Below are positions 60,071 to 60,936 of a stretch of 61,217 bases of DNA, in pieces. The notes below the pieces were generated by a model. It saw nothing but the letters and a program-made list of their open reading frames with translations. It made no database searches and was not told the DNA's origin. Both the position numbers and the translations under genes were made by a program. The stretch comes from a virus (taxonomy: Duplodnaviria; Caudoviricetes), in IMG/VR virus record IMGVR_UViG_3300035128_000109, positions 1 through 61,217 of that record. One strand, 5' to 3'. How positions within the stretch are numbered: position 1 is the stretch's first letter; every line of letters starts with the position of its first letter.

Positions 60071-60145
60071 CTTCGTAATTGATCACGCGCGCCGTTCGAC
60101 CGGGCGATTGTGGTCGCTCCCCAGACCACATGAGCGACGCCGAAC
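60071..60145 (-). other. Cassette-5 5' leader with anti-attC segment
   Basis: 60082-60096 complements 59629-59643 (14/15). 60071-60079 complements 59838-59846 (9/9). Confidence 0.8.
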
Positions 60146-60936
60146 GGTGGCGCGGATGAGCCGCCAACGGAGTACAGGGGGGGGTTAGCATCCTGTTTCC
60201 ATAGCGGTCGGCAGGGCGTGTTTGAGAAGATACCCGCCGATAAACTCTGTATAGGCTGGCGGGATTGCTTCTGCCAATTCTCGCCTATTCATCCAGTCAA
60301 TATCTTGTGCAATTGAACCGTCCTTTCGATCAAAATTATTTCCAACACACGATATTGCTTGCGCTCCGTTTCGGAATGCAGAATACCCGTGAAAGGCGTT
60401 GGTAAATAATTTGCGACACTGGCACGTTGCAGGAGCAAAATAAATAGGCGGGTTTACTTCAAATAACCTGTGCCTAATCAGTGGCAATCCAAACATTGTT
60501 CCACAAAGCATCAACGGATTGCGAAGTGGTGCGCCTGGTACATTTTCTATTACAAAAGGCTTTTTTGTTCTCATAAGTAGTTTTCTAACCGGCACAATTA
60601 ATTTTGGATACTTTTTTGTTGATAAACCCTTTAGTCTGGAATACCTTTGGCATGGCGGGCTTGCATGAAAAGCGTCAAATATATCAGCGAATTCTCGTAT
60701 AGCTTGCAAGGCATCCATTTTGTGAAATTCAAAAGGATAGCGAGGCTGATCTTCGACATCAAACCCTACGACTTCGAACCCTGCTCGATAGTATCCCATC
60801 CCTGCTCCGCCAGCCTTGCAAAATAGGTCGGCTATTTTTGGCTAGACACAAAAGCCCTGCCCTTTTCGCTTGTAGGATGTTGAGATAACGGGATTGCTCC
60901 CTGTACCGTTGGTCGGTCTCCATTCGCTTGTTAGGG
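60139..60936 (-). other. attC: Giant attC (cassette 4), 798 bp, with a gene in its loop
   Basis: Left arm CCCTAAC-AAGCG-AATGGAGA-CCGACCAACGGTACAGGG pairs with right arm CCCTGTACTCCGTTGGCG-GCTCATC-CGCGCCACC-GTTCGGC. Confidence 0.75.
60185..60841 (-). CDS. C5-cytosine DNA methyltransferase-like domain; start unclear because an in-frame TAG precedes motif I
   Basis: ADLFCKAGG (upstream of the track start), HASPPCQ, IENV, RHRLFE and EAIPPAY motifs. Confidence 0.8.
   Translation of the reverse strand, partial: PKIADLFCKAGGAGMGYYRAGFEVVGFDVEDQPRYPFEFHKMDALQAIREFADIFDAFHASPPCQRYSRLKGLSTKKYPKLIVPVRKLLMRTKKPFVIENVPGAPLRNPLMLCGTMFGLPLIRHRLFEVNPPIYFAPATCQCRKLFTNAFHGYSAFRNGAQAISCVGNNFDRKDGSIAQDIDWMNRRELAEAIPPAYTEFIGGYLLKHALPTAMETGC

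Follow-up and report, generated by a model that had tools for sequence, protein, structure and literature searches.

An integron attC site of 798 nucleotides on a phage genome, with a cytosine methyltransferase reading frame between its arms

The IMG/VR virus record IMGVR_UViG_3300035128_000109 (Duplodnaviria; Caudoviricetes) carries an integron on a phage genome, and one of the attC sites of that integron, at positions 60139-60936, is 798 nt long and holds the reading frame of a C5 cytosine methyltransferase (MTase). We analyzed the complete record of 61,217 nt, referred to here as the window, which is classed as linear and has a CheckV estimate of 100%. The minus strand contains most genes, among them those for the small and large terminase subunits and the portal. 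On the same strand, an integron integrase, IntI, is encoded at 1069-2064 and matches TIGR02249 with 376.4 bits (curated cut-off of 265) over profile positions 2-314 of 315. The window also encodes, at 58357-59481, a tyrosine recombinase of the ordinary Xer/phage integrase type. Sites of attC type lie at both contig ends, and the cassette array continues across these ends. The IntI-associated array comprises five attC sites in a single orientation, that of the minus strand (the top strand of the sites), which is also the orientation of intI.

The region 60139-60936 consists of two attC halves, one with the R'' box, L'' box, and stem (60895-60936) and one with the stem, L' box, and R' box (60139-60180). 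An earlier note on this DNA, made from the letters alone, had described such arms about 720 nt apart around a C5-MTase frame, and its coordinates proved exact, with 719 nt between the arms and the frame on the minus strand. The plus-strand (bottom-strand) letters are GCCGAAC at 60139-60145, the R' box, and GTTAGGG at 60930-60936, the R'' box. The top strand accordingly ends in CCCTAAC (60936 to 60930) and GTTCGGC (60145 to 60139), so that both inverted core sites are present. The crossover in R' is predicted at 60144|60145. Across the array, each R'' matches the first bases of its own cassette: 60930-60941 is complementary to 61084-61095 at 12 of 12 positions, the R'' of the sister site attC5 (59846-59857) is complementary to 60134-60145, the start of the cassette that ends in attC5, at 12 of 12, and 239-248 is complementary to 783-792 at 10 of 10.

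Between the R and L boxes lies an unpaired central spacer of 8 nt on the 3' side (60146-60153) opposite 4 nt (60926-60929), its strands non-complementary except for two G-C pairs. The same layout is found in attC5, attC3, attC_0, and attC_a elsewhere in the array. The L' box and 3' stem arm (60154-60180) form about 24 pairs with the 5' stem arm and L'' box (60895-60925), including one G-T and interrupted by bulges only. Within this stem, the L boxes pair as 60154-60160 with 60918-60925, leaving C60921 extrahelical, a column pattern that recurs with covariation in six normal sites. Compared with attC5, the stem has three double (compensatory) changes and no pair-breaking change. As a separate observation, the stems of attC5 and the long site contain a second AAC/GTT-like pair (CCAACGG/CCGTTGG) and a GTAC palindrome (59648-59665, 59815-59835, 60162-60179, and 60898-60912), which are absent from attC3.

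The DNA between the arms is partly attC-derived. The loop end next to the 3' arm (60181-60207) contributes the stop and the seven codons before it to the MTase frame and is homologous to attC5 (59672-59694) and attC3. On the other side, a conserved loop segment beside the 5' arm (60861-60900, repeat family D1) is 70% identical to 59780-59819 and also matches 61152-61191. The 653 nt in between (60208-60860) have no counterpart in attC5 or attC3, as delimited by these homologies and by MTase homologs, which align to frame residues 1-207. BLASTN of attC5 against the whole window gave two matches with order and orientation kept, 59618-59694 to 60132-60207 (82% of 77 nt, E 2e-12) and 59780-59829 to 60861-60912 (81% of 52 nt, E 2e-6). 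The kinship of the arms with attC5, which the earlier note had seen by eye, is thus significant, and it places the arms above chance. Alignment of the three sites puts the extra DNA at one loop-apex position, with 0 nt in attC3, about 88 nt in attC5, and 653 nt in the long site.

With IntI above its cut-off, canonical boxes, spacer, and extrahelical base, and three compensatory changes, the proposal that this is a split attC of a real integron holds. We conclude that the site at 60139-60936 is a genuine attC within an integron borne by a phage, and that it forms a local family with attC5 and attC3. A compact canonical attC within 60139-60232, from the MTase stop to R', was considered and rejected: its sole L-type pairing puts an R''-like GTT 26 nt away from L'', and this R'' fails to match the start of the cassette.

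The long site also folds in the expected manner. In single-stranded DNA folding, a check proposed by the earlier note, the arms are paired with each other in the minimum-energy structure and in the centroid structure alike. Fold z-scores were -3.2 for the 798-nt site (20 shuffles) and -3.8 for attC5 (200 shuffles). When the R and L boxes were constrained under DNA parameters, the probability of the recombinogenic fold was 0.038 for the long site versus 0.004 for attC5 and 0.003 for attC_0. An inner inverted repeat (60210-60224/60847-60861) is 12/15 complementary and paired in the fold, but it is at chance level among 27 listed pairs and was not used. We found no promoter-like sites in the region (2.0 expected) and no terminator-like sites (2.6 expected), and Rfam gave no match at E up to 1 across the array region, insert included.

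The MTase frame (60188-60841, minus strand) has 218 codons, lacks a start codon before motif I, and matches PF00145 with 28.8 bits (cut-off of 22); its match to the NCBIfam model dcm falls below the cut-off of that model. Motifs I (FxGxG), IV (PCQ), and VI (ENV) are present, and all 50 of the 50 invariant columns of a nine-sequence alignment are kept. Homologs cover residues 1 to about 207 of the frame and begin with M plus 1 to 5 residues followed by LLDLF, where here a TAG precedes codon 2. This in-frame TAG (60842-60844), also present in the depth-18 contig of the public sequencing run X1, separates the MTase frame from a 45-codon leader open reading frame (ORF) at 60845-60979. The leader is in frame with the MTase, and its ATG at 60979 occupies the ORF-start position of the cassettes X and Z. 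A search for homologs of the 45 leader residues gave four matches, all of them repetitive unrelated proteins, and none of 126 matches had the leader fused to an MTase, the five with the longest coverage having unrelated N-termini. Recoding of TAG was considered and rejected, given that 7 of 61 ORFs stop at TAG, that table 11 gives a coding density of 86%, and that the window has no tRNA gene. Read from its sequence, the gene as it stands would give no enzyme with motif I unless the TAG is read through. In the insert, we found no intron, insertion sequence (IS), or RNA family, Pfam giving only DNA_methylase and Rfam nothing at E up to 1.

The long site belongs to a cassette, Y, that we delimit at 60145-61094 (950 nt, minus strand) from the R' crossovers and that consists of a hairpin, a mini-site, the leader, and the long attC with the MTase. 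Its limits could be compared with four public sequencing runs, all stored as contigs, which drop rare forms. A 41.5-kb contig of run X1, which may be the source sample, has a depth of 18.3 and covers 58300-61120 without difference. The assembly graph branches at 61091-61120, a branch seen in contigs of X1 and of X2 (another sample). There, a 418-nt contig with attC3 and the sequence beyond it (depth of 35.1) leads either to cassette Y or to a contig with a depth of 18.9. The alternative contig continues after attC3 with 929 other letters, then with 60136-60102, and then diverges. The contigs diverge upstream at 61091, 3 nt away from the predicted crossover 61094|61095, in good agreement with the limit given in the earlier note. 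The downstream crossover at 60144|60145, which that note had placed at 60145, has weaker support from a related cassette in run X4 that differs beyond 60147. Run X4 also contains a relative of attC5 with 110 instead of 181 letters between its L boxes and a relative of cassette X with a different attC ahead of it.

Because the branch depths are equal (18 and 19 against 35) on a phage backbone of single depth, the assembly suggests that the attC3 segment occurs twice in one genome, followed once by a 929-nt cassette that lies outside the record. Two such copies would explain why the record ends there. In a further observation on the contig ends, the mini-site at the left end (window 1-125) matches the spacers and L boxes of attC3 (61089-61217) exactly, which points to one cassette spanning the contig ends and to the record being a permuted or circular genome with a gap.

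Mini-sites of this kind are found in cassettes X, Y, and Z, each of which bears, just after its first bases, a 41-53-nt opposite-strand replica of its own attC in the excised-circle configuration (window 48-88, 60062-60107, and 61005-61057, plus strand). In these replicas, TG stands in place of the entire stem and loop, and other letters invariably take the place of AA in the conserved AAC. With the R' of the attC before it, each mini-site makes a hairpin of about 75 nt that is nearly perfect. The one in cassette Y (61005-61057) replicates the long attC without its stem and loop, and in a 1.07-kb single strand it pairs with 60143-60158 at a probability of 0.78 to 1.0. The stem of the long site still pairs with its canonical partner in that fold. 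The same type of element occurs in an unrelated phage record, G001, on the forward strand at about 13641, 15472, 15834, and 17684.

The other four sites of the array are shorter. After intI, the first cassette ends in attC_a (787-915, 129 nt), and the next site is the canonical attC_0 (119-245, 127 nt), with extrahelical G and T bases and no mismatch to 783-792. At the other contig end, attC5 (59625-59852, 228 nt) has about 88 extra nt in its loop, which ORF121 reads in frame. The normal-size sister attC3 (61089-61217) is truncated by the contig end. All of these are on the minus strand. An L-box helix is common to six normal-length sites, two in the window and four in G001, with compensatory change in four of nine predicted pairs. 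The first crossover of the array, G|TT (1068|1067), falls directly after the intI stop codon (1069-1071). Since intI and the cassettes are co-directional and the first crossover is this close, an overlap of attI with the 3' end of intI is expected, as is co-transcription of the gene with the array. We also note that the cleavage triplet on the bottom strand is AAT, not AAC (A|TT versus G|TT on top), in three of about ten sites of the family: at 787-793, in locus L092 of G001, and at loose contig ends at 60136 in runs X1 and X2.

Relatives of the arm family were sought with a 16-nt pattern in viral contigs and a 20-nt pattern in metagenome contigs. The first returned 33 stretches, of which one was a true relative (G001) and the rest were chance; the second returned seven, the one true relative being the same record. 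Across both sets, the arm family therefore occurs in one other virus record, at 90% identity. G001 is an otherwise unrelated phage of 43,784 nt, estimated to be 100% complete, without IntI. It has at least eight attC sites clustered mid-genome (locus L130, about 13300-18200), with lengths of 125, 128, 155, 128, 238, and 227 nt and two more that are unclear. The loop insert of its long sites is a different one, of about 100-130 nt at the same loop position, and both long attCs of L092 encode Cys-rich tails in frame with the entering ORF. IntI relatives were found by tblastn in the GenBank phages P1, Shewanella M16-3, Vibrio phages, and Virus Rctr41k, and another IntI-bearing virus record, G002, has no attC-like array downstream of its IntI.

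Translation of attC loops appears repeatedly in these relatives. ORFs traverse the whole 5' half of the 227-238-nt attCs and stop just before the 3' arm (ORF121, 59670-60035; L092, 480-830 and 739-1320). The residues encoded by the attC form a linker rich in Pro, Ser, Thr, and Glu, and those from the loop a tail that is either charged and helix-like or Cys-rich. Three ORF121 homologs have a common N-terminal domain up to the R''-encoded residues and then diverge. Two other proteins, P0005 and P0006, have different N-terminal domains and the same attC5-encoded tail, loop included, with no indel or stop. In a further protein, P0007, an attC5-type site is fused in frame, by its 5' half and a portion of its loop, to the start of ORF72 (compare window 59342-59780), a deletion having removed the 3' half-site and joined two cassettes. 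From the tails of the ORF121 homologs and the coding loops of L092, we conclude that long translated loops are a trait of this attC family.

The MTase itself has relatives with 40-54% identity at 101 IMG/VR loci, and the nearest metagenome proteins reach 69% and 68%. Two of seven fetched homologs (P0009, 69%; P0035, 57%) end in tails that resemble the translated R''-spacer-L'' of attC_0 or attC_a type. These protein tails suggest that ordinary MTase cassettes exist, and in their light the arrangement described here looks derived, not a general mode of storage.

We favor the explanation that a derived insertion sits in the loop of a real attC and has not yet destroyed the site, and we put the probability of this reading at roughly 55%. 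The loop apex would have been expanded by the 653-nt segment, which carries the complete C5-MTase coding sequence from codon 2 on. The MTase probably entered by illegitimate recombination, not through IntI, and the insertion would have hit a lineage in which the loop apex tolerates coding inserts, like the roughly 88 nt of attC5 and the 100-130 nt of G001. IntI may still excise or insert the 950-nt cassette (61094 to 60145) as a single unit that keeps the gene inside its own attC. Excision would need the whole site single-stranded and would be far less efficient than at the 127-129-nt neighbors under replicative conditions; excisability perhaps persists, at low efficiency. In support of this, the available part of PMC8946536 (section 5.1.1) states that an attC delivered as a single strand recombines alike whatever its loop length. 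The MTase would be silent or nearly so, since motif I would need either read-through of the TAG from the leader ATG at 60979 or a +1 correction in the A5 run (60835-60839) after the GTG at 60849.

Several results weigh against this explanation, and some of them favor its main rival, which we consider possible though rather unlikely: that the MTase insertion inactivated a normal attC, that cassette Y is fixed, and that the arms are intact only because the event is recent. The site is more than five times as long as the longest described attC in the accessible text of PMC5371416, where sites measure 57-141 bp. According to PMC8946536, recombination under replicative conditions drops by as much as four logs when loops are long, and 719 nt is far beyond the lengths tested there. 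The 1.07-kb fold pairs the R'-spacer-L' of the long site with the mini-site (61032-61052, probability near 1) and not with its canonical partner, in a duplex without unpaired features, which makes the mini-site a competitor for the R' and L' boxes. The recombination product, a circle or deletion joint of 61094 to 60145, is absent from the contigs of the four runs, which could not show rare forms. Run X2 has the identical sequence in pieces, with the junctions of the insert unbridged by 31 nt, and so gives no independent confirmation. The arrangement is seen in a single lineage. At the start of the MTase, the first ATG comes after motif I and the GTG at 60849 is one base out of frame across the A5 run, and the window shows neither a tRNA gene nor a sign of TAG recoding; a gene already broken at its start fits decay. 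An inert site, however, is at odds with R and L boxes, spacer layout, extrahelical base, and 12-nt R'' match that are all uneroded, and with an equilibrium fold probability no lower than that of the neighbors. Sister sites of 227-238 nt with coding loops are also kept in several cassettes and in two phage records, which indicates that long loops are tolerated in the family.

A broader possibility is that the attC loop is the regular place for cargo in this lineage, from peptide tails up to whole genes, entered in frame from the incoming ORF and moved with the hairpin by IntI. This corresponds to the claim of the earlier note that cargo is stored in the terminal structure, of which one part stands, in that a whole MTase frame does lie in the loop. 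At least three different inserts (the attC5 type, the G001 type, and the MTase) occupy the same loop position behind homologous arms, all are in frame with the ORF that enters the attC (the MTase likewise apart from one TAG), and the leader ATG is at the usual start position of cassette ORFs. Yet only one whole gene is found in a loop, in a single lineage and with a defective start, and the nearest MTase relatives look, from their protein tails, like ordinary cassettes with a downstream attC. The earlier note had further suggested looking for MTase homologs between split attC arms, and none of the 78 phage MTase loci we examined has comparable arms; the lack of any leader fusion among the 126 matches points the same way. 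We regard this general form of the claim as doubtful. Fusion of two neighboring attC sites after two deletions, with the 5' half from the attC of an upstream cassette and the 3' half from that of the MTase cassette itself, is in our view quite improbable. P0007 documents a comparable deletion, and canonical MTase cassettes seem to exist, but two precise deletions would be required, R'' fits the 12 bases with which the same cassette begins, and the three matched compensatory changes relative to attC5 indicate that the arms evolved as partners; this covariation argues against a union of two different sites. The insert, being without intron or IS features, argues likewise against the known invaders of attC sites.

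Hardly credible, finally, is the view that there is no attC here and that the arms are an inverted repeat due to chance, a hairpin of the generic kind between phage genes, or a chimera of the assembly. Among 78 control phage MTase loci (maximum of 31, median of 17), 4 have a flank inverted-repeat score at least as high as the 25 of this site, so that its raw score is unexceptional, which also counts against the insertion reading. For this reason, our case rests on family homology and attC anatomy and not on the inverted repeat. The record ends within repeats, and the assembly graph branches in this region. Against these points stand the presence of IntI, significant homology to sister sites, arms that recur in another record, the canonical box order with complementary cassette limits, the independent contig build of X1 that spans the region without difference at a depth of 18, and the lack of terminator-like sites where 2.6 were expected.

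The attC is taken to be a short element with the gene outside it, and search programs and cassette definitions are built on that view. Integron finders cap attC size near 200 bp. It is plausible that standard detectors would miss the 798-nt site, as the earlier note had expected, because published sites measure 57-141 bp in the available portion of PMC5371416. If the long site recombines, the size limit of attC would not be intrinsic and cassette surveys would be blind to such forms. If the loop is in fact a position for cargo, capture of a gene by the loop of an attC would be one way for genes to become joined to attC sites, and size-limited detectors would miss a class of cassettes. The long attC offers a concrete and testable intermediate for how genes become linked to attC sites. 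The record also adds a well-defined complete integron on a phage genome, with a cargo gene of a typical phage anti-restriction type. If the site is inert, it would represent a recent rearrangement of little consequence. A literature search for unusually long integron attC sites found no report of such a site, its scope leaving supplementary files, in which attC length tables might stand, outside.

In comparison with canonical attC sites, such as the Vibrio cholerae repeats, the long site shares the order R''-spacer-L''-loop-L'-spacer-R' with AAC/GTT ends, the unpaired central spacer, and the extrahelical base on the 3' arm of the bottom strand. It also shares membership in a homogeneous site family within an array that adjoins the IntI gene, with R'' matching the cassette start. 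It differs in its length of 798 nt versus 57-141 bp (PMC5371416, text as available), in the second AAC/GTT-like pair in its stem and the AAT cleavage triplet of some sisters, and in the position of its gene: where a canonical site follows the coding sequence and at most overlaps it, here the whole MTase frame (60188-60841) lies between the arms. Among known interruptions, IS1111-attC elements break up attC sites. Group IIC-attC introns insert in attC as well (PMC3001079, in the part available), and large foreign DNA inside an attC is common to both and to the site described here. Unlike these elements, however, the insert has no reverse transcriptase, ribozyme, or transposase (DNA_methylase being the only Pfam match and Rfam giving none) and is a bare coding sequence at the loop apex, in frame with a leader. 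With small orphan phage C5 MTases, the gene has in common its identity of 40-54% to the 101 IMG/VR loci and up to 69% to metagenome proteins, as well as motifs I, IV, and VI; it differs in having no start codon of its own and in sitting between attC halves. Integrons and attC clusters in phage genomes have already been described (Qi et al. 2023, PMC9892861), and the presence of IntI, attC sites, and cassettes on a phage genome is shared with them. Compared with those systems, and as far as the available text of PMC9892861 goes, in which no long attC is reported, the integron here is distinguished by co-directional intI and cassettes with the first crossover right after the intI stop, and by an attC family with translated loops and mini-sites.

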